From NCBI GenBank assembly GCA_015069565.1, contig SVIJ01000001.1, forward strand, positions 8,056 through 72,055: a stretch of 64,000 bases of DNA, in the 5' to 3' direction. How positions within the stretch are numbered: position 1 is the first letter of the stretch; each line of letters opens with the position of its first letter. The DNA is from Clostridiales bacterium. Its GTDB lineage: Bacteria; Bacillota; Clostridia; Christensenellales; Borkfalkiaceae. The notes beneath the pieces were generated by a model. It was not told the DNA's origin, ran no database searches, and worked only from the letters and a program-made list of their open reading frames with translations. Positions 9,350 through 55,210 of the stretch are shown one piece after another. The position numbers and the translations under genes were made by a program.

Positions 9350-12300
9350 ATGCAACGTAAGAAACTCAAAAATCTAACGATAAAAATGGCGGCTTTTCTC
9401 CTTTTTTGCGGCGCTTTTTGCGGCGCGGGGAGCGTTGCGCCGTCTTTTGAAAACGCACAGGCAGAGAGTGGCATAGCCCCCTCTGCTTTGCCTTTTGATG
9501 GCGGCGACCTTTTCCCGTCCACGACGTTGGAAGGCGGCTTTTCCGACACGCACGCCGCGAGTCAGGAAAAATATTTGTATTCCCGTATCGGCATGCAAAA
9601 GGACGGCGTTTCCGTCCGCGACGTCACCAAGGGCGCAACGGATGCACACCGTTCACGCGTCGTCGTGATTGATAGCGGCGTAAAATATGATCACGAAGAT
9701 TTTTTGGCGGCGGACGGATCTATTCGTTTTAGCCCTTTGAGCTACAACGTGACGATGAAAAAAACGGTCGCAGAAGCAGGGTATGAAATCTTGGCGGATA
9801 GCGAAATTGTAGGCGGACACGGTACCCAGGTATGCGGTCAAATCTTTGCCGTTGGGGATAATGGCGTCGGAATCGCGGGGCTTGCCGAAGACGTGGAGCT
9901 GATTTTTGTCAAGGTCACGCCCACCTCGCAAGGCGGCTACGACGGCTACGAGATGCTGGAAGCGATGGAGTACGCGGCAACGCTGAACGCCGACGTCGTG
10001 AATATGTCACTGGGCAATTTCTTGACGAGCAATCCCTATTCATCCGTTTTGCGTAGAATCCGCAATAGCGGCGCGGTGATCGTTTCTGCAGCAGGGAACG
10101 TTTCCAAGAGCGATTTGCATTATCCGTCTGCGGATAGTAGCGTAATCGGCGTGGGGGCGTTTACAAACCTGCTCAATTATTCGTCCACGGCGACGGAATA
10201 TCCCTTGGCTTCCTATTCGACGTTCGGGGATAAGAACGTGCAAGTTTGCGCGCCTGGCGGCTTTTACTCGACGACGATGGACGGCGGCTATGCGTACGCC
10301 AACGGCACTTCGCTCGCTACGCCGATCGTCACTTCGGCGGTGGCGCTGTATCGTTCGCTGTACCCCGAATCCACGGTAGAAGAAGTAGAAGCGGCGCTCT
10401 ATGCGTCCGCAACCGACCAAGGGGATTACGGCAAGGATTATAAGTTCGGCTACGGTGGCTTGAATATCTACGATTTCCTGTTTGGAAAAACGGGTCAGGT
10501 CACCTTTGATTTTGGGGGCGGCAACGAGCAAACGCGCACGGTGAAGGAAGGGCATGCTTTACAGGAGTACCCTTTCCCGACGGTGGGAAATATACCTACG
10601 GGTAAGGAGTTTGGCGGTTGGTACTTGGATAAAGCCTACACTAAGCCGTTGACCTATTATAAGCAGGTTTTGCCGATCGGCACGCGCGTGTACGCGAAGT
10701 GGCAAAATATCGGCGCAGACGGCTTATCGACGGGCTCGGCAAACGGCTGCGGCGCGCTGGATTACACCTTTACAAAAAGCGGCAATATCGCAATTAAGGG
10801 CTACCATGGCTGCGGTGAGCGCTTAATTTTGCCTAAAAACCTTACGGTGGACGGCAAAATCTACTCTATAACAGAGCTTGCGGCAAAGGCGTTGCAGGGG
10901 CATAAAACCTTGAAAAAAATCGTCTTGCCGACTACGGTGACGACGATTCGAGAATACGCGTTTGCCGACGATTATGAGTACGTATACCTGCCGTCGTCGG
11001 TGACTACGGTGGAAAAACACGCCTTCCGCAACAGCTCGGGAACGCTGTATATGGAAAGCGAAACGGGCGCGGACGGCTTTGCGGTCGGCTGGAACGAAGG
11101 CGCGGAGTTGACCAACGTTTTGAAGGTTGGACAAGTCAAGGTGGAAGACGGGCTGGAACTCGTCTTGATCGACGGAAAATATACCCTGCTTACCTACGAA
11201 GGTGCAGATAGGTACGTATCTTTGGATTTGGAATATCCTGTGACGACGATTGCGCCGCAGGCGTTTGAAGGAAATACACGCGTGGAAACGGTGTATGCGC
11301 CCGACGTGCTTTCGATCGGTGAAAGAGCGTTTTACGGCTGTACGGGCTTGACGGACGTGCAATTCTCGTCGGTGGAAAGCATCGGGGCTTCGGCGTTTTA
11401 CGGTTGCGCCGCCTTGACGGATCTGCAATTCCCCGCAAGCTTGCGCGTGATTGAAAACTCGGCGTTTGCAGGCAATGAAGCGCTCATTCGGTTTTCTATC
11501 CCTGCTGGGAGCGTTTTGGAGCGCATCGGCGATTATGCTTTTGAAGACTGCCTTTCGCTGGAAGGGGTGGATTTGCATAACGCGCAGGCGCTGACCTACG
11601 TGGGCTTGAACGCGTTTGCGGACGCGAAAAACGCCTTTGTGCTCTATATACCCGACAACGTACAAACGATCGGGTATAATGCTTTTGGCGGCATGCAGAG
11701 CTTGACTTCCGCGCGCTTGCCCTTTTTGGGTAGGGGGCGGAAGGATACGTATACCCACTTTGGATATACCTTCGGCGCAAGCAATATCGACCTGCAATCG
11801 GCGGTCGTGCCTGCGAATTTGCAGTATCTTTTCGTCGGCGGTGACGTGCAGGACGGCGCGTTCAAGGGAATGAGCGGACTCACCGTTTTTGTGGCAGGAA
11901 ATTGTAGCGAAGTAGACGGTCTTACCGTATTTAGTGGCGGCAGGTACGCGTTTATTCAAATTTATGCACAGGATTTGCTGATCGGGATGCTGGGCGGCAA
12001 AGCAAACAGCGAGTTGCCCACGTCGACGCTAAATAGCGCATTCCGCGCCCCCAAGGGCTATGCGAGCGCAGGCTGGTCGGGTGCGGACGTTTCCGTATTC
12101 CCTGCCGAAGGCACGCACGTGTGGACGCTGGATACGCAGGCGGAAAGCTATGAGATTGTCTTCTGCGACGAAGCAGGAAACGTTCTTTCTACGCAAACGC
12201 TTGGCTACGGCGAACGGGCAGTAGAACCCGCACTGCCGCAAAAGCCGACCACGGCGCAGTATGAATACGTCTTTATCGGTTGGGATCGTCCGTTGACGCC

Positions 12301-13657
12301 TGCGGTGGAAAACGCCGTCTACACGGCGGTATATCAAGCTGTGGCGCGGAGCTATACCGTGCGTTTTTACAGCGACGATGGAACGCTTTTGTCGCAGGAC
12401 GTTTACCTGTACGGCGAGATGCCGATCGCGCCGATCGTGAGCGATCGTCCGATGGACAACACCTATTATGAAAAGTTTGTCGGTTGGGATCATGAAGTGG
12501 CGCTTACGCAAGAGGATGCGGAATATCACGCGCGGTTTGAAAAAACGTACGTCGAATACAAGATTTGCTTCTTGTATGAAGACGGAACAAGCTTCTTTGA
12601 AAAGACATACTATTACGGGGAAGAAATTTCTGCACCGAACACGGATAGAGAACAAAACGTGGCATACAGGTACGAGTTTATCGGTTGGAAAGAGCCGTTT
12701 AGCATGGTCACGTGCGACGCCGATTATACAGCGTTGTACCGCGAAATTTTGCGTGAATACACCGTTGTTTTTGTGGATTACGACGGCAAGGAAATTAGCC
12801 GTGCAACGGTTGCGTACGGTGAAATTCCTGTGACCCCGACTCCGCCCGAAAGAGCGGAAGAAGGCGGTTTCCGTTATGAGTTCATCGGCTGGGATACGGA
12901 AGTGGTAGCCGTTTTCGGTGACGCTACGTATACGGCGGCGTATAAAGCGGTTTCGACGAAGATTACGGTCAAGTTTGTCAATTATGACGGCTCGCTACTC
13001 TCGGAAGCGGAATACGACAAGGGTGCGACGGTTATCCAGCCTAATACGCCGACGAGAACGGTGGATAGCAAGACCTATTATTACGAGTTCGCAGGCTGGG
13101 ATAAAGACGTGACGTCGGCAACGGAAAACGTGACCTATAAAGCCACCTACGAACGCAAATATTACGAATACACCATCCGCTTTGCGGACTACGACGGTAG
13201 TGTGATTTCGGAAGAAGTGTACCGCTATGGCGCGTCGGTGACCGTTCCTGCAAATCCGAGCCGTGAAGGGTATACCTTCGTCGGTTGGAATCCAGAGATT
13301 GCGAAGGCTGAAAAGGACGTTGTTTATACGGCGGTCTACGAAAAGTTTCCAGGCGGTGGCGGCTCGGGCGACGATAGCTCGGGGGGAAACACCAATAGCG
13401 GCGATGATAGCAGTTCGGGCGGCTTAGACGACTCGACGGGCGGCAATAGCTCGGGCAACAACGATAGCTCGGATAGTTCTAACGCAGATAGCAGTACGGG
13501 GGATTCGTCGACGGGCGCGTTCGATTCTTCGTCTATCGTACCGCCGTCGGTGCAGGATTCGCCCAAAAAGAGCGGCTGCAACGGAACGGTTGGGGGCGTG
13601 GGCGTATGCTGTATGCTTTTTGCGGCTCTCATCTTCTGCTGCAAAAAGGAAGAATAA
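9350..13657 (+). CDS. S8 (subtilisin-family) serine peptidase fused to BspA-type LRRs, six GW-type repeats, an S/G/D-rich linker and a C-terminal TM anchor
   Basis: Signal peptide present. Catalytic motifs RVVVIDSGV (Asp), GGHGTQVCG (His), NGTSLATP (Ser). LRR_5-like region (LILPKNLTVDGKIYSITELAAKAL...). Repeats of type Y.F.GWD. Hydrophobic tail VGVCCMLFAALIFCC-KKEE. Confidence 0.85.
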   Translation: MQRKKLKNLTIKMAAFLLFCGAFCGAGSVAPSFENAQAESGIAPSALPFDGGDLFPSTTLEGGFSDTHAASQEKYLYSRIGMQKDGVSVRDVTKGATDAHRSRVVVIDSGVKYDHEDFLAADGSIRFSPLSYNVTMKKTVAEAGYEILADSEIVGGHGTQVCGQIFAVGDNGVGIAGLAEDVELIFVKVTPTSQGGYDGYEMLEAMEYAATLNADVVNMSLGNFLTSNPYSSVLRRIRNSGAVIVSAAGNVSKSDLHYPSADSSVIGVGAFTNLLNYSSTATEYPLASYSTFGDKNVQVCAPGGFYSTTMDGGYAYANGTSLATPIVTSAVALYRSLYPESTVEEVEAALYASATDQGDYGKDYKFGYGGLNIYDFLFGKTGQVTFDFGGGNEQTRTVKEGHALQEYPFPTVGNIPTGKEFGGWYLDKAYTKPLTYYKQVLPIGTRVYAKWQNIGADGLSTGSANGCGALDYTFTKSGNIAIKGYHGCGERLILPKNLTVDGKIYSITELAAKALQGHKTLKKIVLPTTVTTIREYAFADDYEYVYLPSSVTTVEKHAFRNSSGTLYMESETGADGFAVGWNEGAELTNVLKVGQVKVEDGLELVLIDGKYTLLTYEGADRYVSLDLEYPVTTIAPQAFEGNTRVETVYAPDVLSIGERAFYGCTGLTDVQFSSVESIGASAFYGCAALTDLQFPASLRVIENSAFAGNEALIRFSIPAGSVLERIGDYAFEDCLSLEGVDLHNAQALTYVGLNAFADAKNAFVLYIPDNVQTIGYNAFGGMQSLTSARLPFLGRGRKDTYTHFGYTFGASNIDLQSAVVPANLQYLFVGGDVQDGAFKGMSGLTVFVAGNCSEVDGLTVFSGGRYAFIQIYAQDLLIGMLGGKANSELPTSTLNSAFRAPKGYASAGWSGADVSVFPAEGTHVWTLDTQAESYEIVFCDEAGNVLSTQTLGYGERAVEPALPQKPTTAQYEYVFIGWDRPLTPAVENAVYTAVYQAVARSYTVRFYSDDGTLLSQDVYLYGEMPIAPIVSDRPMDNTYYEKFVGWDHEVALTQEDAEYHARFEKTYVEYKICFLYEDGTSFFEKTYYYGEEISAPNTDREQNVAYRYEFIGWKEPFSMVTCDADYTALYREILREYTVVFVDYDGKEISRATVAYGEIPVTPTPPERAEEGGFRYEFIGWDTEVVAVFGDATYTAAYKAVSTKITVKFVNYDGSLLSEAEYDKGATVIQPNTPTRTVDSKTYYYEFAGWDKDVTSATENVTYKATYERKYYEYTIRFADYDGSVISEEVYRYGASVTVPANPSREGYTFVGWNPEIAKAEKDVVYTAVYEKFPGGGGSGDDSSGGNTNSGDDSSSGGLDDSTGGNSSGNNDSSDSSNADSSTGDSSTGAFDSSSIVPPSVQDSPKKSGCNGTVGGVGVCCMLFAALIFCCKKEE
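12149..13348 (+). repeat. Six tandem ~67-aa coding repeats inside the S8 peptidase gene
   Basis: Units start YEIVFCDE, YTVRFYSD, YKICFLYE, YTVVFVDY, ITVKFVNY, YTIRFADY. Each carries YG....P...P....Y.F.GW......D..Y.A.Y. Followed by an S/G/D low-complexity tract to about 13530. Confidence 0.8.
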
Positions 13658-13813: not shown

Positions 13814-14224
13814 ATGAACATCAATTCTATGGTTAACTATTGCTTAGGGCTTTCCTATTACGACCTTGAAAATTTTGCAGGTCAAAACTACAAGAAGGTG
13901 CATGCACACATCGCAAGCAAGCACGGCGGCGACAAGGCAAACACCCTTCTCATCGGCTCGATTTTTACCTGTATTGCGACGGATGGCAAGCTTTCCGAAG
14001 GGGAATGGAAGTTCATCGCTTCCTTCATCGGCGGCTATACTTACGACGAAGCGTTTAAGGTAGCGAGTGAGTTCTATTGCGACGAAGCGGAAAAGACCAC
14101 GCGCGATCTGATCGATTTCTTGCCTTCGGACGTTGCGGAAGCGCTCGTTTCCGTGTGCATTGCGGTGCTTGCGGTGGACGGCAGAATGGAAGGCCCTGAA
14201 ATGGCGTTCCTTCGTAGCCTTTAA
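13814..14224 (+). CDS. TerB-like domain protein (136 aa)
   Basis: Two halves each carry the TerB-type A.DG...E..F motif (CIATDGKLSEGEWKFI; VLAVDGRMEGPEMAFL). Paralogue of the next gene. Confidence 0.5.
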   Translation: MNINSMVNYCLGLSYYDLENFAGQNYKKVHAHIASKHGGDKANTLLIGSIFTCIATDGKLSEGEWKFIASFIGGYTYDEAFKVASEFYCDEAEKTTRDLIDFLPSDVAEALVSVCIAVLAVDGRMEGPEMAFLRSL

Positions 14225-14244: not shown

Positions 14245-14664
14245 ATGACTGTACGTGAAATGATAGATATGTGTTTGGGTATGTCCCGTAGCGAGCTGGA
14301 AAACTTTGCGGGAAGATATTTTAACACCGTTTACAATTATCTTTCGGAGCAGGTTGGATCCAGCCTTGCGATGCGCGGAATGAAGATTGCTATTTTCAGC
14401 GCGCTTGCGGCGGATGGGGATCTTTCGGATGCGGAATACGAGTTTGTTCGTTCCTTCCTTGGCGGTTATTCTTATTCGGATGCGTGGCAGGAAGTGGATA
14501 TGGCGCAAAGCAGGGAATTGCGTGATGAAATTCACACGATGATTTGTAGACTTCCGTCGTCGCCGAGAGCGGCGTTCCAAGCGATGAGCATCGCGATCCT
14601 GTGCGTAGATAAGCGAATCTACGGCGAAGAAATAGACTATTTGGAAACCTATCTTCTTCCGTAA
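14245..14664 (+). CDS. TerB-like domain protein (139 aa), paralogue of 13814..14224
   Basis: Shares ...CLG.S...LENFAG... with its neighbour, plus ALAADGDLSDAEYEFV and ILCVDKRIYGEEIDYL. Confidence 0.5.
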   Translation: MTVREMIDMCLGMSRSELENFAGRYFNTVYNYLSEQVGSSLAMRGMKIAIFSALAADGDLSDAEYEFVRSFLGGYSYSDAWQEVDMAQSRELRDEIHTMICRLPSSPRAAFQAMSIAILCVDKRIYGEEIDYLETYLLP

Positions 14665-17019: not shown

Positions 17020-17048
17020 TTGCAAGTGCGAGAAAAATGTGATATACT
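17020..17048 (+). promoter_or_regulatory. Sigma-70-type promoter of the ATP-grasp/TIR-NACHT/IMPase operon
   Basis: TTGCAA, 17-nt spacer, TATACT with upstream TG. A second TATAAT lies at 17053..17058. RBS AGGAG lies before the ATG at 17079. Confidence 0.6.
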
Positions 17049-17078: not shown

Positions 17079-17936
17079 ATGAAAGGGTGGCTGGTCGTCA
17101 ACGGCTTTTTACAATCGAATAAGTTTGACGAGCTGTACGCCTTTTTGTGCCGCGCGGCGGTTTCGCTCGGTATCGAATTAGAAAAAAAGACGTCGACGGA
17201 GCTTTTCGACCGCGTGGACGCGCTTGTGGATAAGCCCGATTTCGTGCTGTTTTGGGACAAGGACTACGCCCTTGCCAAGCGCTTGGAAAACGCAGGGCTG
17301 CGCCTTTTTAACAGCGCGGAAGGGGTGCGGCTTGCGGACGATAAAACGCTGACGGCGCTTGCCCTTTCGGGGAAGGTAAAAACCCCCAAGACGATGCTTG
17401 CGCCCATGACCTTCGACGGGGTGGGGTACACCGATTTATCCTTTTTGGCAAGAGCGGAAAAGGAGCTCGGCTATCCCATGGTCGTAAAGGAAGCGTGCGG
17501 CTCGTTTGGGCGGCAGGTATACTTGGTGCATAGCGCAAAAGAGCTACAAAAGCTTGTATCGGGCTTTGGGTATAAGTCCTTTTTGTTGCAGGAATATATT
17601 GCGTGCAGTTCGGGCAGGGATTTGCGCGTGAACGTCGTTGGCGGCAGGGTGCTTTGCGGAATGCTCAGAGAAAACGACAGCGATTTCCGCTCGAATATCA
17701 CAGGCGGCGGCAAGGCACACGCCTATACGCCCACGGTAGAGCAGTCGGACGCGGCGGTGGCGGCGTGTAGGGCGCTCGGGCTGGATTTTGCAGGCGTGGA
17801 CGTACTGTTTGGCGAAGGGGGAGATCCGCTCGTTTGCGAAGTGAATTCCAACCCCCATTTTAGAAGCACCTACGATTGCACGGGGGTGGATATGAGCGTG
17901 GAAATTTTGCGCTATATCCAAGAAATGCTTTTATGA
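17079..17936 (+). CDS. RimK-type ATP-grasp ligase 1
   Basis: GYPMVVKEACGSFGRQVYLV; LLQEYI...GRDLRVNVVGGRV; DFRSNITGGG; GLDFAGVDVLF...VCEVNSNPHF. Confidence 0.8.
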   Translation: MKGWLVVNGFLQSNKFDELYAFLCRAAVSLGIELEKKTSTELFDRVDALVDKPDFVLFWDKDYALAKRLENAGLRLFNSAEGVRLADDKTLTALALSGKVKTPKTMLAPMTFDGVGYTDLSFLARAEKELGYPMVVKEACGSFGRQVYLVHSAKELQKLVSGFGYKSFLLQEYIACSSGRDLRVNVVGGRVLCGMLRENDSDFRSNITGGGKAHAYTPTVEQSDAAVAACRALGLDFAGVDVLFGEGGDPLVCEVNSNPHFRSTYDCTGVDMSVEILRYIQEMLL

Positions 17937-18778
17937 AGGGCTGGCTGATTTACGACGAAGCAGGGGCGGCGCGCAACGAGTGGTTTATCGGCGAGTGCCT
18001 GCGCTATGCGAAGGAGTACGGGCTAGATTTGCGGTTGCAGATTGCGTGTGGCGAAGCTTGCCCCGACGAAGAGTTGCCTGATTTTGCGCTCGTGAGAACG
18101 ATTGCCCCTACGCTCAGCGAGCGTTTGGAAAAAGGGGGCGTCCGCGTGTTTAACAATGCGGAAGTGTCGGCGGTTGCCAACGATAAGTGGTACACCCACC
18201 AACGAGCGCTAACGCTCGACCTTCCCGTGATGGCGACACTACTTTCATCCGCTTGTCAAGAGAGTTCACCCTTTGGCTACCCTGTGGTGGTAAAAAAGCG
18301 TGACGGTCACGGCGGCAGCGAAGTGTATAAAGCGGATACGGAGTGGGAGTACCGCGCGCTTTGGCAGGGGCGCAATCCTGCGGACTACGTGACGCAGGCG
18401 ATTTGCTCGGAGCTTGGGAAGGATATGCGCGTTTACCTGCTCGGCGGCGAGATTTTAGGGGCGGTTTTGCGGACGTCTGAAACGGATTTCCGTAGCAACT
18501 TTTCGCTTGGCGGAAAGGTTGAATGCGTACCTGTCCCCCACGAAATTCAAAAAATGGTGCAAAAACTACATAAAAATCTGCAAACGGATTTTGTCGGAAT
18601 GGATTTTATTCGCCACGGCGGCGAATGGGTTTTGAACGAAATCGAAGACGTTGTAGGCAGCCGAATGCTGTACAAGTCGGCAGGGCTGGACGTGGCGAGA
18701 GCCTATATAATGCACGTGGCGAAAGCAATGGCAAAAACAACGGAAAAAACGCCTGAAAGGGGGCAAGAGAATGGATAA
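17933..18778 (+). CDS. RimK-type ATP-grasp ligase 2
   Basis: The start MKGWLIYDE overlaps the upstream stop (ATGA), and I prefer it to the listed 17876 start. GYPVVVKKRDGHGGSEVY; GKDMRVYLLGGEILGAV; DFRSNFSLGG; DFVGMDFI...VLNEIEDVVG. Confidence 0.8.
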   Translation: MKGWLIYDEAGAARNEWFIGECLRYAKEYGLDLRLQIACGEACPDEELPDFALVRTIAPTLSERLEKGGVRVFNNAEVSAVANDKWYTHQRALTLDLPVMATLLSSACQESSPFGYPVVVKKRDGHGGSEVYKADTEWEYRALWQGRNPADYVTQAICSELGKDMRVYLLGGEILGAVLRTSETDFRSNFSLGGKVECVPVPHEIQKMVQKLHKNLQTDFVGMDFIRHGGEWVLNEIEDVVGSRMLYKSAGLDVARAYIMHVAKAMAKTTEKTPERGQENG

Positions 18779-21611
18779 CAAGAACATCTTTATCAGCTAT
18801 GGGCACGGAACGCACGGCGAGAAGATTCAGCGGCTTGCGGATGATTTACGCAAATACGGCTTCAACGTCTTTTTCGACGTCGATTACTTAAAGCTTGGCG
18901 ACTGGGAACAAACCATCGACAAGCACATCGTCGCGTGTAAATACTTCCTGTTTTTCGTTTCCGAGCGTTCGACGTCCCCCGACGGGTACTGCTTGAACGA
19001 GCTTTGCCGCGCAGGTGAAAACAACTCGGTGATCATCCCCATTTTGGTGGACGATTCGCGCGTGCCGCTTAGCATCAACAAATACCAACGCCTGTTCTTC
19101 AAGGACTGCTTTGAAGGGGCGGACGGCTTGAACGAGAACAAGTACAAGGATTTTCTTATTCAGCTCGTTTCCATTTTGAGCGGAAACGTCAAGCTTGGCT
19201 TTGCGGACGAAGACGCGCGCTTGGAAGCGATTTTGCAGCCCATCTCGTCCAAGGATTTCGTCTTCCGCTACTACGACGATTTCTGCGGCAGAAAGGAAGC
19301 CTTCCAAAAGTTTGAAGAATTCGTGGCGTCGCCCAAGAACTTTTTCTGGATTAAAGCCAGACCTGGGTGCGGTAAAACGGCGTTTTCGAGTATGCTTATC
19401 TGGCGTTATTCGGAGTTTGTTGCGGCGGCGCATTTCTGCAAGTTCAACAACTCGGACAGAGCGAACCCGAAATACATCATCTCGTCGATTGCCTACCAGC
19501 TTGCAGGGGCGTTGCCCGAGTACAAGAAAAAGCTTTGCGAGCTGACGGGCTTGGAATCGGTGTTCGAGAAAAACGCTATGCGTATCTTTGAGTATTTGCT
19601 CATCGAGCCGACGCTCGATTTACACCCGAGCCGCCCCGTCGTGATCGTAATCGACGCGCTGGACGAGTGCTCTTGGCGTGGGGACAACGAGCTTTGCAAG
19701 CTTTTGCAAAGAATGCGTGGACGCATACCTGCCTGGATGAAATTCGTAATGACGAGCCGCGACGAAGCGGATATTCGCAGATATTTATCCCTGATGGCAA
19801 CGTCCTACACCCTTTCCGATACGGAAACGGACGACGACCTTCGCGAGTATTACAGAAAGCAATTTCCCCATGCGGGCGAAGACAAAATCGACGTCTTAGT
19901 GACGAAGGCGGAAGGGTCCTTCCTGTACGCGAGTGAAATCGTCAAGCAAATCAAGGAAGAAAACTTAACGCTCGACGATATCCATTTCTTCCCCGTCGGT
20001 ATTTACGGTTTCTTCAACGACTGCTTTTTGCGTATGTTCGGCAACGAAGCGGAGAACGAGATTACCTACGACGACGTAAAGCCGCTGTTAGAGTTTTTGT
20101 GTATTTCGCAAGAGCCTGTCGACGTCGATTTCTTGGAAGAATATTTGGAGCTCGACGAGTACCGCATCAACCAAATTTTGGCGCTCATTAGCGGTATGTT
20201 CCCCGTGCGTGACCGCACGATTGAGCCTGTACATAAATCACTTGTCGACTGGCTGACCGATTCCCACGACGTGGGGCATATCTTCTACGTCAGCAGAAAG
20301 AGCGGCTACAAGCGCTTGCTTTCCTATATCGAAGGCAAGTACGCAAGCGGCAAGGTGGACGATCCGTACGTGATGAAGTATTTTGGGGACACCCTGATCG
20401 CCTTAAAATCGTACGAGCGCTTGGCGGAAATTTTGAACGATTACGAGCTGCAACGCACCGTGATTGAAAAGCTCGACTTCGATTCGGGGCTGGAAAGATA
20501 CCTGTTGGAGCTCAAAAGCCTGCACGAAAACAAGAGCGAGCTTTGCGTCAAGCTTTTGTCCGAAGATACCTTCATCAAGCTCTTTTCAGCGAATCGTAGA
20601 CTGTTGTACAATTCAGGGATGTTCTTCACCTTAAAGAGCATCGGCTTGTCCGTAGCCTTGCGCACGGATAATCGAAACTGGGGCTTGGAAGGGGAAGTAG
20701 GAAAGGTTTTCTACTATTATATAGTAGAAGACTTTGCAAAAGCCATCAAAAAGGCAAAGACCCTGCTTGCGAGCGACGAGCTGAAAACGGACTACGTACT
20801 GCAATCGGAGCTTTATAACGTCAAGGGTCTTTCCGAGAGAAAGCTCGTGCTCTTTGACGACGCGCTCGAAAGCTTTGAAAACTGCATTGCCGCCACCGAA
20901 AGCGTGGAAGAAGCGCACAGCGAAAACAGCGATACCGAGTTTGAGCTTTCCTTGGCGCATCTTATCAAGGCGAAGATTTATCTTGCGATGCTCGATTTTT
21001 CCGCGTGCAATAAAAACTGCAAGAAGGCAATCAAAATCCTTGCGCGCAAGGTAGACGAGATGCCCGATTGCGACAAGCGGACGTCGAACATTTTGTTCCT
21101 TGCCGAAGACTATCGCGTTTTTGCCGACGCGCTCATTTGGCAAGGGGAATACGAAGAAGCGGCGGATAAGCTCAAAGAATGTCAGGACATCTACCAAGCG
21201 AACAACGGCTCGGTGGACCGGTACTATATTCGTTATAAATACACGTCGCTCTTATTGCATATTTTGCAAAAGGAAAGCGACGGCGCGGTGGAAGAGCTGG
21301 AAGATATGCTGGCGCGCGAAGCGACAAGCTCGTACGACAAGGGGCGGCTGTATCATTATATCGCGCTTTGCATATACTTGAATGGACGGGAGAATCCCGA
21401 GCTTGTCAAGAAGGGCTTTGAAGCGGCGAAAAAGGGTGTGGATACCTTCGACGGAATCGACGCTCTGCTCGAAAAGGCGGAGTGCGACCATTTGGCGCAA
21501 AAGCTTGCGAAGATGGCAGGCGCGCGCTATATGAGCGACGATGATGAAAACGAATACGTAGACGCTTGGATTGAGTACGTTGACGGATTTTTGCAGGAGA
21601 TAATCGGTTGA
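18771..21611 (+). CDS. TIR-NACHT(STAND NTPase)-TPR-like protein (bacterial NLR-like), 946 aa
   Basis: N-terminal TIR (IFISYGH...; FLFFVSERS...YCLNEL with Glu77 at 18999..19001). Walker A ARPGCGKT (K202). NACHT-type Walker B VVIVIDALDEC (D295-E299). The C-terminal ~400 aa is helical-repeat/TPR-like. The ATG overlaps the upstream gene by 8 nt. Confidence 0.85.
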   Translation: MDNKNIFISYGHGTHGEKIQRLADDLRKYGFNVFFDVDYLKLGDWEQTIDKHIVACKYFLFFVSERSTSPDGYCLNELCRAGENNSVIIPILVDDSRVPLSINKYQRLFFKDCFEGADGLNENKYKDFLIQLVSILSGNVKLGFADEDARLEAILQPISSKDFVFRYYDDFCGRKEAFQKFEEFVASPKNFFWIKARPGCGKTAFSSMLIWRYSEFVAAAHFCKFNNSDRANPKYIISSIAYQLAGALPEYKKKLCELTGLESVFEKNAMRIFEYLLIEPTLDLHPSRPVVIVIDALDECSWRGDNELCKLLQRMRGRIPAWMKFVMTSRDEADIRRYLSLMATSYTLSDTETDDDLREYYRKQFPHAGEDKIDVLVTKAEGSFLYASEIVKQIKEENLTLDDIHFFPVGIYGFFNDCFLRMFGNEAENEITYDDVKPLLEFLCISQEPVDVDFLEEYLELDEYRINQILALISGMFPVRDRTIEPVHKSLVDWLTDSHDVGHIFYVSRKSGYKRLLSYIEGKYASGKVDDPYVMKYFGDTLIALKSYERLAEILNDYELQRTVIEKLDFDSGLERYLLELKSLHENKSELCVKLLSEDTFIKLFSANRRLLYNSGMFFTLKSIGLSVALRTDNRNWGLEGEVGKVFYYYIVEDFAKAIKKAKTLLASDELKTDYVLQSELYNVKGLSERKLVLFDDALESFENCIAATESVEEAHSENSDTEFELSLAHLIKAKIYLAMLDFSACNKNCKKAIKILARKVDEMPDCDKRTSNILFLAEDYRVFADALIWQGEYEEAADKLKECQDIYQANNGSVDRYYIRYKYTSLLLHILQKESDGAVEELEDMLAREATSSYDKGRLYHYIALCIYLNGRENPELVKKGFEAAKKGVDTFDGIDALLEKAECDHLAQKLAKMAGARYMSDDDENEYVDAWIEYVDGFLQEIIG

Positions 21612-22381
21612 AAGAGTTGATTTCCTATTTGAAAAGTTTAATCGTGGAAGCAGGGGAGCTGTTGCTTTCGCAAACGGTTTCGGTGTCGAAGCATAAGACG
21701 GCAAACGACCTGCTGACGGAAAACGATCTTTTGATAGAGCGGTTTTTGATAGACGGCGTAAAGGGGAAGTTTCCCAGCGTGAACATCGTCAGCGAAGAAA
21801 CGGCGGCGGACAACGCCTTGCAGAGTGTGAGCGTGGTGATCGACCCGATCGACGGCACCTGCAACTATGCCGTGGGGACGGATCGTTTTGGGGTACAGGC
21901 AGCCATTTTTGATGGGGAAGAATGTGTGGCAAGTATGCTCTATTTCCCTGTGCAAAAGGAGCTGGTGACGGCGGAAAAGGGCAAGGGCGCGTTTTTGGGC
22001 GAGAAGCGGCTCGCGGTGGATACGGCAAAGCGAAGCGGCGACGGAGTGCTACTCATCAGCGACTACTATTCGGGGCAGGACGTGCCGATGGAAAAGCAGT
22101 TCGCGTTGGTGCAAGCCCTGCAAACGACGTTTTTGAAGACGCGGCATTTGGGGGCGGCGTGTGTGGATTTTGTGTCCTTGGCGCGCGGTCAAGCGGTGGC
22201 GTATATTTGCCATTATCATCATATTTGGGATATTGCGCCCGGGCTTTTGGCGGCGACGGAGAGTGGGTGTGTGTACGCGCATTTGAGCGGCGGGGAATAC
22301 CGCTACGGCGAGCCTGCCTTGGTGGTGGCAAACAGCGAAGAAACGCTGAAAAAGATACTAAAAACGTACGAAAAACTATAA
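21608..22381 (+). CDS. Inositol monophosphatase (IMPase/SuhB/CysQ) family phosphatase
   Basis: TTG start inside a TTGA overlap with the TIR-NACHT stop, with AGGAG 8 nt upstream. Motifs VSEE, VVIDPIDGTCNY, WDIAPG. Confidence 0.8.
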   Translation: MKELISYLKSLIVEAGELLLSQTVSVSKHKTANDLLTENDLLIERFLIDGVKGKFPSVNIVSEETAADNALQSVSVVIDPIDGTCNYAVGTDRFGVQAAIFDGEECVASMLYFPVQKELVTAEKGKGAFLGEKRLAVDTAKRSGDGVLLISDYYSGQDVPMEKQFALVQALQTTFLKTRHLGAACVDFVSLARGQAVAYICHYHHIWDIAPGLLAATESGCVYAHLSGGEYRYGEPALVVANSEETLKKILKTYEKL

Positions 22382-22410
22382 AAAAAGCGGCTTTTTAGCC
22401 GCTTTTTTTG
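22382..22410 (+). terminator. Intrinsic terminator closing the four-gene operon
   Basis: AAAAGCGGCT-TTTT-AGCCGCTTTTTTT. Confidence 0.8.
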
Positions 22411-22783: not shown

Positions 22784-23227
22784 TTAGATTTTATCCCGAC
22801 CTGCAAGATAATCCAACGAACAGGGCAGGTTTTTCGCTAATAGGTATAGGCTTGAAAGTTCGGGAATCTTTTTCCCTGCAAACCACAACGAGAGCTTGGA
22901 TTCGGTGATGCCCGTCAATTTGCTGATTTTATAGCGTGTTAAGCCACTTTCCATTATAATTTTACGAAAACGCTCGGTGGGTGTGCTGGTTAAAATGTAG
23001 CGTTCCTGTTGGCGTTCGTCCACTAAACCGAAAAGATAATCAAAGGAACATTCAAACACGTCCGAAATCTTGGCGGCGTTTTCGTAGGAAGGGATATGTT
23101 CGCCGCTTTTATATGCGTACAAACGGGATTGAGAAATCCCTGTTTTTTCAGAAAGCGCGCGGACGTCCATTTTGTGAATTAAAAGCAGTTCCAAAAATGC
23201 GTCCTGAAAGGTGTTTTCATTTTCCAT
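22784..23227 (-). CDS. XRE-family transcriptional regulator with two HTH domains
   Basis: Two HTH_XRE-like units (MDVRALSEKTGISQSRLYAYKSGEHIPS; LTRYKISKLTGITESKLSLWFAGKKIPE). Confidence 0.8.
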   Translation of the reverse strand: MENENTFQDAFLELLLIHKMDVRALSEKTGISQSRLYAYKSGEHIPSYENAAKISDVFECSFDYLFGLVDERQQERYILTSTPTERFRKIIMESGLTRYKISKLTGITESKLSLWFAGKKIPELSSLYLLAKNLPCSLDYLAGRDKI

Positions 23228-23287
23228 AATATTTTACCAACTTTTTTATTTTGTATAAAAATTATGCTTTTATTACCGTAAAAATAC

Positions 23288-23315
23288 TTGATTTTACCGC
23301 TAAGAAAAGTATAAT
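23288..23315 (+). promoter_or_regulatory. Promoter divergent from the XRE gene
   Basis: TTGATT, 16-nt spacer, TATAAT, in an AT-rich 120-bp divergent intergenic region. Confidence 0.5.
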
Positions 23316-23347
23316 AAAAGTAAAACATAAGCAAAGGACGAAAGATT

Positions 23348-23527
23348 ATGGAACAAAAAAGCGAAAAAATCGAAATAGAAAATTTGATAGAACAAATCAA
23401 AATAGTGTTAGCGGATGAGTTCGTGGCAAAAATGCGATTGAACAAGGAAGAAAAAATGTTGACGATGCGTTTTCCGAACGGACAAAAATTCGTTGTTGCC
23501 CTTTGGGAAGAGCGGCAATCATCGTAG
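23348..23527 (+). CDS. Small hypothetical protein (59 aa), not in the supplied ORF track
   Basis: My manual translation: MEQKSEKIEIENLIEQIKIVLADEFVAKMRLNKEEKMLTMRFPNGQKFVVALWEERQSS*. A weak AGGA RBS and a promoter lie upstream. Confidence 0.35.
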   Translation: MEQKSEKIEIENLIEQIKIVLADEFVAKMRLNKEEKMLTMRFPNGQKFVVALWEERQSS

Positions 23528-23535
23528 GGCAGAAG

Positions 23536-23756
23536 TTGTCCTTGCGGACAAGCGAGATTACGCCTGCGGCGTAGTGAGATTTACCTGCGGTAAGCGATAT
23601 TATGCTACGCACAGCGATATGTTTGCCTGTGGCAAACGTAAACGTAGGGCGGGGGCTTGCTCCCGCCGAATATAGGGACGGGCGTTCCTAATCGTCCAAA
23701 TGTAGGGGAGCGGTTTACGCTCCTGACAAAACGGGCGATTCGTGAATCGCCCCTAC
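23536..23756. repeat. Hairpin-array element, variant copy A' (GYGAKAT type) plus GC-hairpin and multibranch module
   Basis: TTGTCC-TTGC-GGACAA; GCGAGAT+TACGCC-TGC-GGCGTA; GTGAGAT+TTACC-TGC-GGTAA; GCGATAT...; GCGATAT+GTTTGCC-TGT-GGCAAAC; GGCGGGGGCTTGCTCCCGCC. GTAGGGG...CCCCTAC encloses two further hairpins. Confidence 0.75.
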
Positions 23757-23812
23757 GGAGGGATTCTATCGTTTCGCTTTCAAAAATTTGCCGTTCGCGC
23801 CCGAATTTTGAT

Positions 23813-23841
23813 TTGACATACGCGTGTGCGCGTGTTATAAT
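23813..23841 (+). promoter_or_regulatory. Consensus sigma-70 promoter of the aminotransferase gene
   Basis: TTGACA, 17-nt spacer, TATAAT. Confidence 0.65.
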
Positions 23842-23892
23842 AATTAGGATAAAGACGCAACACGCCGCGACGCGCGGCAAAGGATATTCATT

Positions 23893-25086
23893 ATGGTCAA
23901 CGAAAAGGCATACGCTTTGGGTAGCAAACGCTCGGCAATCCGAGAATTGTTCGAATACGCAAAAAAACGGGGCGCGGAAATCGGCGCGGAGAACGTCTTT
24001 GACTTCTCTATCGGCAATCCTTCTATCCCTGCGCCTGCGCGGGTGCATGCGGAAATCGAACGCTTAATGCAAGAAATGCCGTCCGTGGAGCTTCACGGCT
24101 ATACGTCCGCGCAAGGGGATAAATCCGTTCGCGAAACCATCGCGGACAACATGTTGTCCCGTTTTGGCTTTGCTATGGATGCAGACCTGCTGTATATGAC
24201 CTGCGGTGCGGCGGCAAGCTTGACGATTACGTTAAACGCGCTGACGGCGGAGCAGGGGGACGAGTTCTTGGTGTTCGCGCCCTTCTTCCCCGAATACCGC
24301 GTGTTCGTCGAAGGGGCAGGGGCAAAGCTCGTCGTTTTGCCTGCGGATGAAAACCTGCAACCCGACCTTGAAGCGCTTAAAAAGGCTCTAAATCCTAAGG
24401 TGCGCGGCGTGATTATCAATTCCCCGAACAATCCTTCGGGCGTCGTTTATACTAAAGAAAAGCTGGAAGGCATGGCGGCGATTTTGCGCGCGCATAGCGA
24501 AACGTATTCGACGGTGTATCTCATTTCCGACGAGCCGTATCGCGAGCTTGTATACGACGAAAGTACGGCGGTCACCTTCCCGATGAACGTGTACGAAAAC
24601 ACGTTGATTTGCTATTCCTATTCCAAGGCGCTCTCTTTGCCTGGCGAGCGAATCGGCTATATTGCCGTTTCCCCGAAGGCGGCGGACGCAAAATCGGTGT
24701 ACGCGGCGGTGTGCGGCGCAGGGAGAATGCTTGGGTTTGTGTGCGCGCCTGCGCTCTTCCAAAGAGTGGTGGCGGCGTGCGACGGCTTGACGGGCGAGCT
24801 TTCCGTCTACCGCAAGAACCGCGACCTGCTCTATAAAGGCTTGACGGACTGCGGCTTTGAATGTATTTATCCCGACGGCGCGTTCTATTTGTTTATGAAG
24901 ACGCCCGAAGGGGATGCGAACGCTTTTTGCGAGCGCGCGAAGAAGTACGAGCTGCTTTTGGTGTCTGGGGAGAGCTTTGGCGCGCCCGAATACGTGCGTA
25001 TTGCGTACTGCGTAGCAACCGAGCGCATCGAAAAAGCCCTGCCTGCATTCGCGCTTTTGGCGAAAGAATACGGTTTGCGCGGGTAA
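23893..25086 (+). CDS. PLP-dependent aminotransferase, class I/II (aspartate/aromatic type)
   Basis: N-terminus KRSAIRELFEYA...DFSIGNP. SYSKALSLPGERIGY contains the PLP-lysine motif. 397 aa. Confidence 0.85.
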   Translation: MVNEKAYALGSKRSAIRELFEYAKKRGAEIGAENVFDFSIGNPSIPAPARVHAEIERLMQEMPSVELHGYTSAQGDKSVRETIADNMLSRFGFAMDADLLYMTCGAAASLTITLNALTAEQGDEFLVFAPFFPEYRVFVEGAGAKLVVLPADENLQPDLEALKKALNPKVRGVIINSPNNPSGVVYTKEKLEGMAAILRAHSETYSTVYLISDEPYRELVYDESTAVTFPMNVYENTLICYSYSKALSLPGERIGYIAVSPKAADAKSVYAAVCGAGRMLGFVCAPALFQRVVAACDGLTGELSVYRKNRDLLYKGLTDCGFECIYPDGAFYLFMKTPEGDANAFCERAKKYELLLVSGESFGAPEYVRIAYCVATERIEKALPAFALLAKEYGLRG

Positions 25087-27846: not shown

Positions 27847-27852
27847 CACATA

Positions 27853-28029
27853 GTCAGTAAAGACGAACACCGTAGAAAGCAAGTCCTTTTGGATAATGGG
27901 AAACCGCTTGCCGAGGTAGAAGGAAAAACTTTTTTTGAAAAGTAGTGTGTCCTTATGCCGATTGCGGTGTAAGGAATTTTTTTATGTCAGGCGATAATTT
28001 ACAGCGAAATCGCTTAAAGGAGGTAATTC
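27853..28029 (+). promoter_or_regulatory. rplJ 5' leader (L10-leader-like autoregulatory region)
   Basis: A ~175-nt untranslated leader with a hairpin plus T7 run at about 27951..27983, just before the RBS AAGGAGG. L10(L12)4-binding leaders are known at this position in Bacillota. I did not verify the fold. Confidence 0.4.
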
Positions 28030-55110: not shown

Positions 55111-55206
55111 AACGCAAGGCTGTGCCTTGCATATCACATTTGCGGAGCAAATATATCACGTTTACGCAGTAGACATATCACAAATCCCAGCAGGGATTTA
55201 TATCAC
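55111..55206. repeat. Hairpin-array half element, ATATCAC variant
   Basis: GCAAGGC-TGT-GCCTTGC ATATCAC; ATTTGC-GGA-GCAAAT ATATCAC; GTTTAC-GCA-GTAGAC ATATCAC; AAATCCC-AGCA-GGGATTT ATATCAC. Confidence 0.8.
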
Positions 55207-55210
55207 TGTC

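Follow-up and report, generated by a model that had tools for sequence, protein, structure and literature searches.

This study concerns a stretch of 64,000 nucleotides (hereafter the window) from a Clostridiales bacterium of the Borkfalkiaceae (GenBank assembly GCA_015069565.1, contig SVIJ01000001.1, positions 8,056 to 72,055 of the forward strand), and in particular a plus-strand gene at 18771..21611 that encodes an NLR-like receptor of 946 residues with TIR, NACHT and helical-repeat domains. The gene starts with ATG, about 7 nt downstream of a Shine-Dalgarno-like AAAGGGGG, and its product is identical in sequence to NCBI MBE7093071.1. Directly after it, on the same strand at 21608..22381, lies a gene for a phosphatase of the inositol monophosphatase (IMPase) family (257 residues; Pfam Inositol_P, E = 1.4e-43). 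At the junction GGTTGAAAGAG, the TTG start of the phosphatase overlaps the TGA stop of the receptor as TTGA (21608-21611). Bacterial NACHT proteins with a TIR-NACHT-repeat architecture are known, and the NCBI record calls the window protein a TIR-domain protein. What appears to be new is the phosphoesterase partner, which is conserved, comes in interchangeable unrelated folds and occurs in one natural fusion. This conservation and the fusion suggest that a phosphorylated small molecule controls the receptor. On balance, we favor the view that the two genes form an NLR-like module, in which the receptor is coupled to a small-molecule phospho(di)esterase that would act on a sensor-linked phosphorylated compound.

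Domain Organization of the Receptor

A sequence-only reading of the window had described the protein as a TIR-NACHT-TPR sensor-effector. The strings on which it relied were all found where it had placed them: IFISYGH at residues 6-12, FLFFVSERSTSPDGYCLNEL at 59-78, ARPGCGKT at 196-203, VVIVIDALDEC at 290-300, and two TPR-like stretches further on. Since profile matches, motif invariance and fold comparisons agree, its assignment of domains was correct. Neither of the outcomes that it had named as refuting, a lack of profile support for TIR or a NACHT-type NTPase and a misplaced catalytic Glu or Walker Lys, was observed. The TIR domain was recovered by Pfam at residues 6-111 (18786..19103; TIR_2, 55.9 bits against a gathering cut-off of 28, E = 7.9e-15), and its fold runs to about residue 140. 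The NACHT-type P-loop NTPase core follows at residues 180-330 (19308..19760), with 94.9 bits for NPHP3_N, a model of NACHT-type NTPases (E = 7.7e-27, cut-off 24.8 bits). On this protein PF05729, the classic model for NACHT, remains under its own cut-off (17.8 bits against 26.7), and a sequence-profile search of PDB with the family profile matched no NACHT chain. In the Walker B motif VVIVIDALDEC (19638..19670), D295-A296-L297-D298-E299 reads as D[GAS]hDE. The stretch IDALDE thus conforms to the signature that divides NACHT from other STAND clades (Kibby et al., 10.1101/2022.07.19.500537). The Walker A motif ARPGCGKT (19356..19379) agrees with the pattern GxxGxGK[ST] through PGCGKT, and its lysine had been correctly identified as K202 (codon 19374-19376).

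The remainder of the nucleotide-binding oligomerization module, a helical and putative winged-helix part, occupies residues 331-520 (19761..20330). Here, the profile evidence is weak (HTH_TANC1, 13.5 bits, below threshold), and the predicted model has helices and short strands at residues 433-500. An invariant R330, sensor-1-like, stands just upstream of this part, and an invariant H488-K489 lies within it in a PxHKSLxDW motif. By analogy with other STAND proteins, H488 may be the histidine that contacts ADP. The C-terminal sensor comprises residues 521-946 (20331..21608), about 425 residues of all-helical, TPR-like and family-specific repeat. No Pfam TPR model passes its threshold on the window protein, with TPR_12 reaching 13.9 of the required 30.1 bits. 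The TPR-like character that had been read from the sequence therefore stands by fold and by the profile matches of relatives, and not by any Pfam TPR model on the protein itself.

These matches of relatives come from a Pfam scan in which 18 family members were taken one by one, with matches to TPR_12, TPR_1 and TPR_2 counted at E<1e-3. Both TIR_2 and NPHP3_N were found in every member (18/18), which supports the TIR and NACHT-type NTPase domains across the family as in the window protein. PF05729 was detected in seven of the 18 (best E = 6e-8), HTH_TANC1 in five (best E = 1e-12), TPR_12 in six, and TPR_1 and TPR_2 in four each.

A protein search of 5.8 billion sequences returned 545 relatives. 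The best 120 of these include a continuous series of proteins of ~945 residues, from 100% down to about 31% identity, and the named relatives among them are TIR-domain proteins from metagenome-assembled genomes (MAGs) of Clostridia, Oscillospiraceae and Frisingicoccus. For the motifs, 72 homologues of 30-90% identity were aligned. Invariant residues of the TIR domain are F7, S9, Y10, H12, D36, W45, C74, L75 and E77; those of the Walker motifs are G199, G201 and K202 in Walker A and D295, A296, D298 and E299 in Walker B. R330 and H488-K489 are likewise invariant, and the C-terminal domain contributes 29 further invariant positions. Judged from this alignment, the conservation of the motifs is well beyond chance expectation.

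E77 (GAG codon, 18999..19001) had been singled out as the key Glu of the TIR domain, and it is indeed the putative catalytic residue. It is present in 72/72 homologues, it is the sole invariant acidic residue of the predicted helix alpha-C (residues 74-83), and it aligns with the Glu of the HKEI/HKEL stretch of SARM1/TIR-1, which is E642 by counting along the SARM1 alignment; one alignment that deviates is weighed further below. Against PDB, the family profile found SARM1/TIR-1 first (E ~3e-10), then AbTIR, the SPARTA TIR-APAZ protein and Cat1, within a range of 1e-10 to 1e-7.

The comparison of a predicted structure with known ones, which had been proposed for this protein, led to the same architecture. 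The AlphaFold2 model (mean predicted local distance difference test score, pLDDT, 87.6; predicted template-modelling score 0.66) shows an alpha/beta TIR domain, then the nucleotide-binding oligomerization module, then an all-helical part from about residue 509 to the end. Residues 521-946 consist of helices only, with pLDDT mostly >90. Foldseek against PDB listed, in this order, the STAND-plus-TPR protein 6mfv, Avs3 (8dgc), the plant receptor RPP1 (7crc, 7dfv), MalT (8bob, 1hz4), and TPR proteins such as Rap and LGN, so that the fold resembles both STAND-plus-TPR proteins and TIR-NLRs. For the sensor taken by itself, the matches were MalT domain III, Rap, LGN and designed CTPRs, at probability 1.0 and with target-normalized template-modelling scores of 0.5-0.6. 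There is little doubt about the architecture of the TIR-NACHT-repeat protein and the competence of its motifs. By its sequence, it is probably NLR-like, a STAND protein from the NACHT clade whose TIR belongs to the NAD-cleaving type.

The sensor itself deserves attention. Between distant members, it retains 29% identity, compared with 34% for the TIR domain and 38% for the nucleotide-binding oligomerization module; by these values, it is as conserved as the enzymatic domains and not hypervariable. Its 29 invariant residues, among them R609, R690/K691, R817/R821 and Y648/Y650, are mostly polar or aromatic, with aromatic residues enriched (p = 0.002) and basic ones marginally so (p = 0.065). When residues 521-946 were searched against 1.84 billion representative proteins, only 60 were found to carry the sensor, in nearly all of them at about residues 530-940 of proteins of 920-1030 residues.

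A Conserved Partner of Changing Fold

The sequence-only reading held the receptor to be an NLR-like sensor-effector. This agrees with the domain architecture, but the gene had been taken as a stand-alone one, and its coupled phosphoesterase partner was overlooked. The IMPase encoded in the window has its catalytic motifs intact (DPIDGT at 21842-21859 and WDIAPG at 22226-22243). To place it among its relatives, neighborhoods were surveyed in one genome per GTDB species, and the DNA 3' of each full-length homologue was read. In all 28 species genomes that could be assessed, those whose sequence continues past the receptor gene, the following gene on its strand encodes a hydrolase of 246-280 residues (28/28). 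Its start lies anywhere from an overlap to <=25 nt past the receptor stop in all surveyed loci. The commonest junction is a 4-nt overlap of the ATGA type, which occurs with all three types of partner.

These three types are an IMPase, in 20 loci including Bacilli, Erysipelotrichaceae and one Sphaerochaetaceae MAG; a Cof-type HAD-IIB phosphatase, in four loci including Frisingicoccus caecimuris DSM 28559 (L030); and a protein of the metallo-beta-lactamase (MBL) fold, in four loci including Olsenella sp. An293 (L076). The three families are mutually unrelated. The MBL partners weakly resemble RNase Z, PhnP and "cyclic nucleotide-degrading phosphodiesterase", and some partners match the Apyc1 Pfam model and the NCBIfam model of the latter name. 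Chromosomal Apyc1 homologues cleave cyclic nucleotide monophosphates (cNMPs) (PMC11724313). Every partner has retained its catalytic motifs, which read DxDGT in the HAD and HxHxDH in the MBL proteins. In a neighbor-joining tree of the TIR and nucleotide-binding oligomerization region, each of the three partner types corresponds to a monophyletic clade of receptors, and the partner has therefore been replaced rarely and then inherited with the receptor.

A second enzyme acting on phosphoesters or nucleosides stands beside the receptor in nine loci, often as the upstream gene. Upstream, this is an Apyc1-like MBL that shares its family with the MBL partners found downstream (L010, L011, L017, L018), a PHP phosphoesterase (L032, L076), a HAD hydrolase (L001) or a purine/uridine phosphorylase (L014); in L028, an additional IMPase is found nearby. 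Divergent members that bear a TIR domain (proteins P0148 and P0141; loci L090 and L091) have Apyc1-like MBL genes downstream. From these data, we consider it highly probable that the hydrolase is a true functional partner of the receptor. A conserved third gene was looked for as well and rejected: the sole other cluster of neighbors shared by several loci consists of generic ABC-transporter ATPases, and the small open reading frames (ORFs) 3' of the partner in L003 and L086 have no mutual similarity. A downstream "gene" of 168 residues in L092 was set aside as an apparently spurious antisense ORF, which makes that locus uninformative.

Other neighbors were observed at divergent loci. A multi-pass membrane protein of 672 residues, with no Pfam match, adjoins the receptor in L093 (6801-8819), and a RyR-domain protein lies beside the divergent member in L090 (14-634). 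In L091 (1-3777), a TrkA_N/RyR-domain protein and a second TIR-nSTAND gene adjoin the divergent member. Such neighbors might be effectors that receive a signal.

Association of the Partner With the Sensor Domain

Which part of the receptor the partner belongs to can be approached through proteins that combine the domains differently. One of them, P0156 (1218 residues; loci L086-L088, gene 2043-5699 in L086), begins with a non-TIR N-terminus, continues with NACHT and the family sensor, and ends in a His_Phos_1 domain (E = 4e-39) that is joined directly to the sensor and contains an RHG motif. It occurs on seven contigs from independent samples and sequencing runs, and is followed by an ORF of 48 residues with a 4-nt overlap. 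The predicted histidine phosphatase of P0156 is a fourth unrelated phosphatase fold, here fused. A second such protein, P0137, carries a SAM domain and an uncharacterized domain where the TIR would be. A hidden TIR was considered for both and rejected, since hhalign against the family TIR profile gave a probability of <1%. The converse case is provided by environmental TIR-NACHT relatives that match only residues 5-560 and have other C-termini. Most of these are without an adjacent downstream gene, and where there is one, it encodes a double-TIR protein and no hydrolase. Because the TIR-less P0156 has a phosphatase while TIR-NACHT proteins with other C-termini lack a hydrolase, the partner is tied to the sensor and not to the TIR domain. 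From comparative genomics, we infer that a phospho(di)esterase activity may be an integral requirement of the system, tied to its sensor.

The double-TIR protein is itself a conserved protein of ~260 residues, encoded after the environmental TIR-NACHT relatives in L048 (9302-10075), L053 (9587-10381) and L065 (9772-10620). It appears to consist of two TIR-like halves (xFxSHS... and VFLSYS...), has a common ELIRNLKTR[ED]ME tail, and represents a distinct two-gene arrangement whose hosts are a Syntrophobacteraceae, an Acidobacteriaceae and a Bacteroidetes MAG.

Operon and Genomic Context

In the window, receptor and partner close what appears to be a four-gene operon on the plus strand. The first gene encodes a RimK-family ATP-grasp ligase (17079..17936; Pfam RimK, E = 8e-33; NCBIfam rimK_fam, 177 bits, cut-off 143) and the second a RimK-like ATP-grasp protein (17933..18778; Pfam RimK, E = 8e-18). 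The latter was listed as an ORF from 17876 to 18778, but its likely start is the ATG at 17933 (MKGWLIYDE), which parallels the start of the first gene. The three joints are overlaps of 4, 8 and 4 nt: an ATGA shared by the stop of the first RimK gene and the start of the second (17933-17936), an 8-nt overlap between the stop of the second and the ATG of the TIR-NACHT gene, and the TTGA of the receptor and the IMPase. Upstream of the first gene, a consensus scan alone gave a weak promoter-like site at 17020..17048 (+), TTGCAA-17-TATACT with a TG extension (9/12 matches). Right after the IMPase stop lies a strong palindromic hairpin at 22380..22409, with a 13-bp stem (13 pairs, five of them GC), flanking A and T runs and a T-tail; this is a bidirectional terminator-like site that would end the operon.

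Genes outside the receptor-partner pair vary between genomes. Only the window and L007 (Candidatus Scatosoma sp., the closest relative, 89% identity) have RimK homologues upstream, and the RimK pair is therefore a lineage-specific operon neighbor. As a conserved component of the module it was rejected, because other genomes carry unrelated upstream genes. Rfam and tRNA scans found nothing within or beside the operon. Elsewhere in the window, two Rfam matches exceed the gathering score, a Gut-1 small RNA at 55126-55208 (-) with 51 bits and a ribosomal protein L10 leader at 27852-27991 (+) with 51.5 bits.

Further genes of the window may be noted briefly. A surface protein of 1435 residues at 9350-13657 (+) combines an S8 subtilase with BspA-type leucine-rich repeats and a Listeria-Bacteroides repeat. 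It is followed by two adjacent paralogous ORFs of ~137 residues at 13814-14224 and 14245-14664 (+), which have the pattern MxxxxMxxxCLGxSxxxLENFAG... and of which the first is weakly TerB-like (E = 0.015). Convergent to the operon is the gene for a double helix-turn-helix XRE/RstR-like repressor at 22784-23227 (-). It adjoins ~660 bp without an evident gene (23228-23892), where there are only short overlapping ORFs of 60-150 residues and no Rfam match. A perfect sigma-70 consensus, TTGACA-17-TATAAT, is found at 23813-23841, upstream of an aminotransferase gene at 23893-25086.

The family is confined to anaerobes of the animal gut, uncultured and cultured, and its spread is patchy, with members in Bacillota, Actinomycetota (Olsenella) and Spirochaetota. 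The cultured carriers are Frisingicoccus caecimuris DSM 28559 and Olsenella sp. An293. An origin on a mobile element was rejected on the basis of the searches of phages, plasmids and IMG/VR given below. The patchy distribution over phyla, the variable flanks, the swapped N-termini and the second TIR-STAND gene in L091 together speak for a horizontally transferred accessory cassette like those of conflict systems. The module probably belongs to a conflict or immunity system.

A Possible Mechanism and Its Alternatives

How might such a module work? In the resting state, the receptor would be a monomer with bound ADP. A ligand on the C-terminal domain would relieve auto-inhibition, and the NACHT module would then oligomerize and gather the TIR domains, as plant TIR-NLRs and SARM1 lead one to expect. 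Assembled TIR sites using E77 would cleave NAD(P)+, with cell arrest or a nucleotide product as the outcome. Oligomerization on ligand binding and the NADase activity of the receptor, both of which had been put forward in the sequence-only reading, are inferred here from homology to plant TIR-NLRs, SARM1 and other STAND proteins. The substrate of the partner would be a phosphorylated small molecule of that pathway, most likely the activating nucleotide-like or sugar-phosphate-like ligand, which the enzyme would destroy. Such destruction could set the threshold of activation or return the switch to rest, much like the action of ring nucleases on the signals of type III CRISPR systems.

That the hydrolase erases the ligand of the sensor is a tentative reading, and one we prefer because the sensor is conserved, because its invariant residues are polar or aromatic, and because STAND proteins with MalT-like TPR sensors bind small molecules. 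The TPR-type sensor of MalT binds the small molecule maltotriose. The most specific version of this idea, a bacterial NLR gated not by a phage protein but by a phosphorylated small molecule (for example, a nucleotide-like alarm metabolite), with a dedicated eraser encoded beside or fused to it whose part unrelated phosphoesterases (IMPase, HAD of the Cof type, MBL, histidine phosphatase) would have taken at least four times, remains more doubtful.

Several observations weigh against ligand erasure or against the wider proposal of an immune module. No cyclase or other signal-producing enzyme is encoded in the operon. As a rule, MBL enzymes hydrolyze diesters, in contrast to those of the IMPase and HAD families, which act on monoesters; it is therefore not obvious that all partners would share one substrate. 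Two divergent loci have no evident hydrolase partner, namely L093, with its membrane protein of 672 residues, and L089, with a transposase on a short contig. The exception to the placement of E77 is the alignment to the bacterial TIR 7uxr, which is shifted by three residues so that the Glu of 7uxr falls on C74. There is no defense island around the operon, its flanks being an Opp transporter, the S8 subtilase surface protease with leucine-rich repeats, the aminotransferase and rpmG-secE-nusG-rplK-rplA. A tblastn search against 50,697 phage records gave nothing and one against 72,556 plasmids a single weak partial match, and no relatives were found among IMG/VR viral contigs. PADLOC v2, run on the window protein and 18 relatives, matched the TIR part only (PDC-S66, Aga TIR, SAVED_TIR, bSEFIR, ThsB), although one of the 18 relatives reaches Avs1b at 4e-6.

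The main rival to ligand erasure is that the partner works on the output side, where it would degrade or mature a phosphorylated or cyclic nucleotide that the TIR domain makes from NAD(P)+ (such as a cADPR isomer, 2'-phospho-ADPR or a 2',3'-cNMP). It would do so for self-protection, to end the signal or to complete NAD(P) destruction. We think this rather unlikely. The nearest relatives of the TIR profile are active NADase TIRs (SARM1, AbTIR, SPARTA and Cat1), and several loci pair a diesterase (Apyc1-like MBL or PHP) with an IMPase monoesterase, one of them adding the nucleoside phosphorylase, much as in a cascade of nucleotide breakdown. The RyR-domain proteins of L090 and L091 would fit as effectors that receive the signal. 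However, the main clade is without a separate effector gene to read such a signal, and the association tracks the sensor: P0156 has its fused phosphatase without a detectable TIR, and TIR-NACHT relatives with other C-termini have no hydrolase partner.

A different view is that the system is not directed against phages and instead serves as an endogenous checkpoint for stress or metabolism. The sensor would monitor the accumulation of a toxic phosphorylated metabolite (a sugar phosphate or an intermediate of nucleotide metabolism) that the partner normally clears, and failure of clearance would lead to NAD+ cleavage and dormancy. The housekeeping context of the window, with no mobile or defense genes nearby, would agree with this, as would a sensor that is conserved and not diversifying, the absence of the family from the phages and plasmids searched, and the fact that the partner families are known chiefly as sugar-phosphate and inositol-phosphate phosphatases (YidA-like Cof HAD, IMPase/SuhB). 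We nonetheless hold it to be improbable. Its patchy distribution across phyla and variable flanks suggest horizontal transfer of an accessory cassette, and its sensor has been joined to other N-termini (SAM plus another domain in P0137, the non-TIR N-terminus in P0156), which is typical of conflict systems. Moreover, L091 adjoins a second TIR-STAND gene, and conflict systems are the only other setting in which TIR-NACHT fusions are known.

There is similarly little to recommend a self-contained abortive-infection NLR whose TPR domain recognizes a conserved phage protein, as in Avs, with the hydrolase an ordinary metabolic neighbor: most characterized bacterial STAND sensors with TPR-like repeats do bind phage proteins (PMC13581612) and the single-protein TIR-NACHT-repeat layout has been described among bacterial NACHT proteins (10.1101/2022.07.19.500537), but a chance neighbor is not expected to give way, in sister clades, to three further phosphoesterases of unrelated fold, to remain translationally coupled across Bacillota, Olsenella and Sphaerochaetaceae while all other flanking genes change, or to become part of the sensor protein as it did in one lineage.

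If the two genes do act as a module, the consequences reach beyond this locus. The bacterial NLR-like proteins studied to date are mostly single proteins that recognize phage proteins. The tie between sensor and phosphoesterase would point instead to metabolite sensing by a bacterial TIR-NLR and to a built-in enzymatic control of its threshold, a principle known in cyclic-nucleotide immunity and not in NLRs. A substrate common to the unrelated partner folds should reveal either the ligand or the TIR product, and the two cultured carriers open the module to experiment. If the partner is irrelevant, the gene simply adds another TIR-NACHT-TPR protein to a type already known.

Comparison With Known Systems

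Membership in one of the catalogued antiphage STAND groups (Avs1-5, the tested bNACHTs, TIR-NLR) was considered and rejected, as no PADLOC match extends over the NTPase and the sensor. In the full-text literature searched, we found no description of a TIR, NACHT or STAND protein paired with an inositol monophosphatase, HAD, MBL or Apyc1 enzyme, although one may still have been published.

The bNACHT antiphage proteins are closest in overall plan, with the same layout of N-terminal effector, NACHT and C-terminal repeats, with TIR among the listed effectors and TPR among the sensor repeats, and with the D[GAS]hDE signature, present here as DALDE (Kibby et al., 10.1101/2022.07.19.500537; Cell 2023). 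They differ from the window family in that bNACHT01 was described as a single gene outside an operon, unlike the coupled gene pair of the window. In addition, a conserved phosphoesterase partner, present in the window family, is not reported for them (10.1101/2022.07.19.500537), and the confinement of the window family to anaerobes of the animal gut is not shared by bNACHT.

In Thoeris, a stand-alone TIR protein works with a separate effector that has a SLOG, Macro or similar domain, whereas in the window protein TIR and STAND module form a single chain. No signal-binding domain of the Thoeris type was found in the IMPase, HAD or MBL partners, and the match to the ThsB model is weak (E = 0.015).

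Plant TIR-NLR resistosomes (RPP1, 7crc/7dfv; ROQ1) have the same order of TIR, STAND NTPase and repeat sensor. RPP1 was recovered by the fold search, and the family profile aligns from the TIR domain into the P-loop of 7crb. The assembly of a TIR NADase site through oligomerization, known from these proteins, serves as the model for the mechanism outlined above. However, plant TIR-NLRs use an NB-ARC module of the AP-ATPase clade and leucine-rich-repeat sensors, and they recognize effector proteins of pathogens, while in the window protein the module is of the NACHT clade and the sensor is TPR-like; identity between the two is only ~12%.

A small hydrolase beside a sensor or effector, as found here, is also known from the ring nucleases of type III CRISPR systems and from the chromosomal Apyc1-type MBL phosphodiesterases of cNMPs (PMC11724313); in each case it would reduce the amount of an activating nucleotide. 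In such signal-erasing systems, a dedicated synthase makes the signal, while the module of the window is without a synthase. Most partners in the present family are monoesterases (IMPase, HAD, His-phosphatase) and not ring nucleases or cNMP diesterases, and for them an erasing role is putative.

SARM1/TIR-1 is the closest solved TIR by sequence; its catalytic E642 corresponds to E77 of the window protein, with which it also has the FISY strand in common. SARM1 is regulated by small nucleotide metabolites, through the NMN/NAD+ ratio (NMN, nicotinamide mononucleotide). It differs from the window protein in its ARM and SAM domains, in its pre-assembled octamer, and in being without a STAND NTPase or a partner phosphatase.

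The best structural matches for the nucleotide-binding oligomerization module and the sensor are the STAND proteins of the MalT/PH0952 type with TPR/SUPR sensors (1hz4, 8bob, 6mfv). These are transcription regulators of the MalT/MNS clade with a DNA-binding output, in contrast to the NACHT module and TIR domain of the window protein. Even so, the binding of maltotriose by MalT provides a precedent for STAND proteins that are gated by a metabolite.

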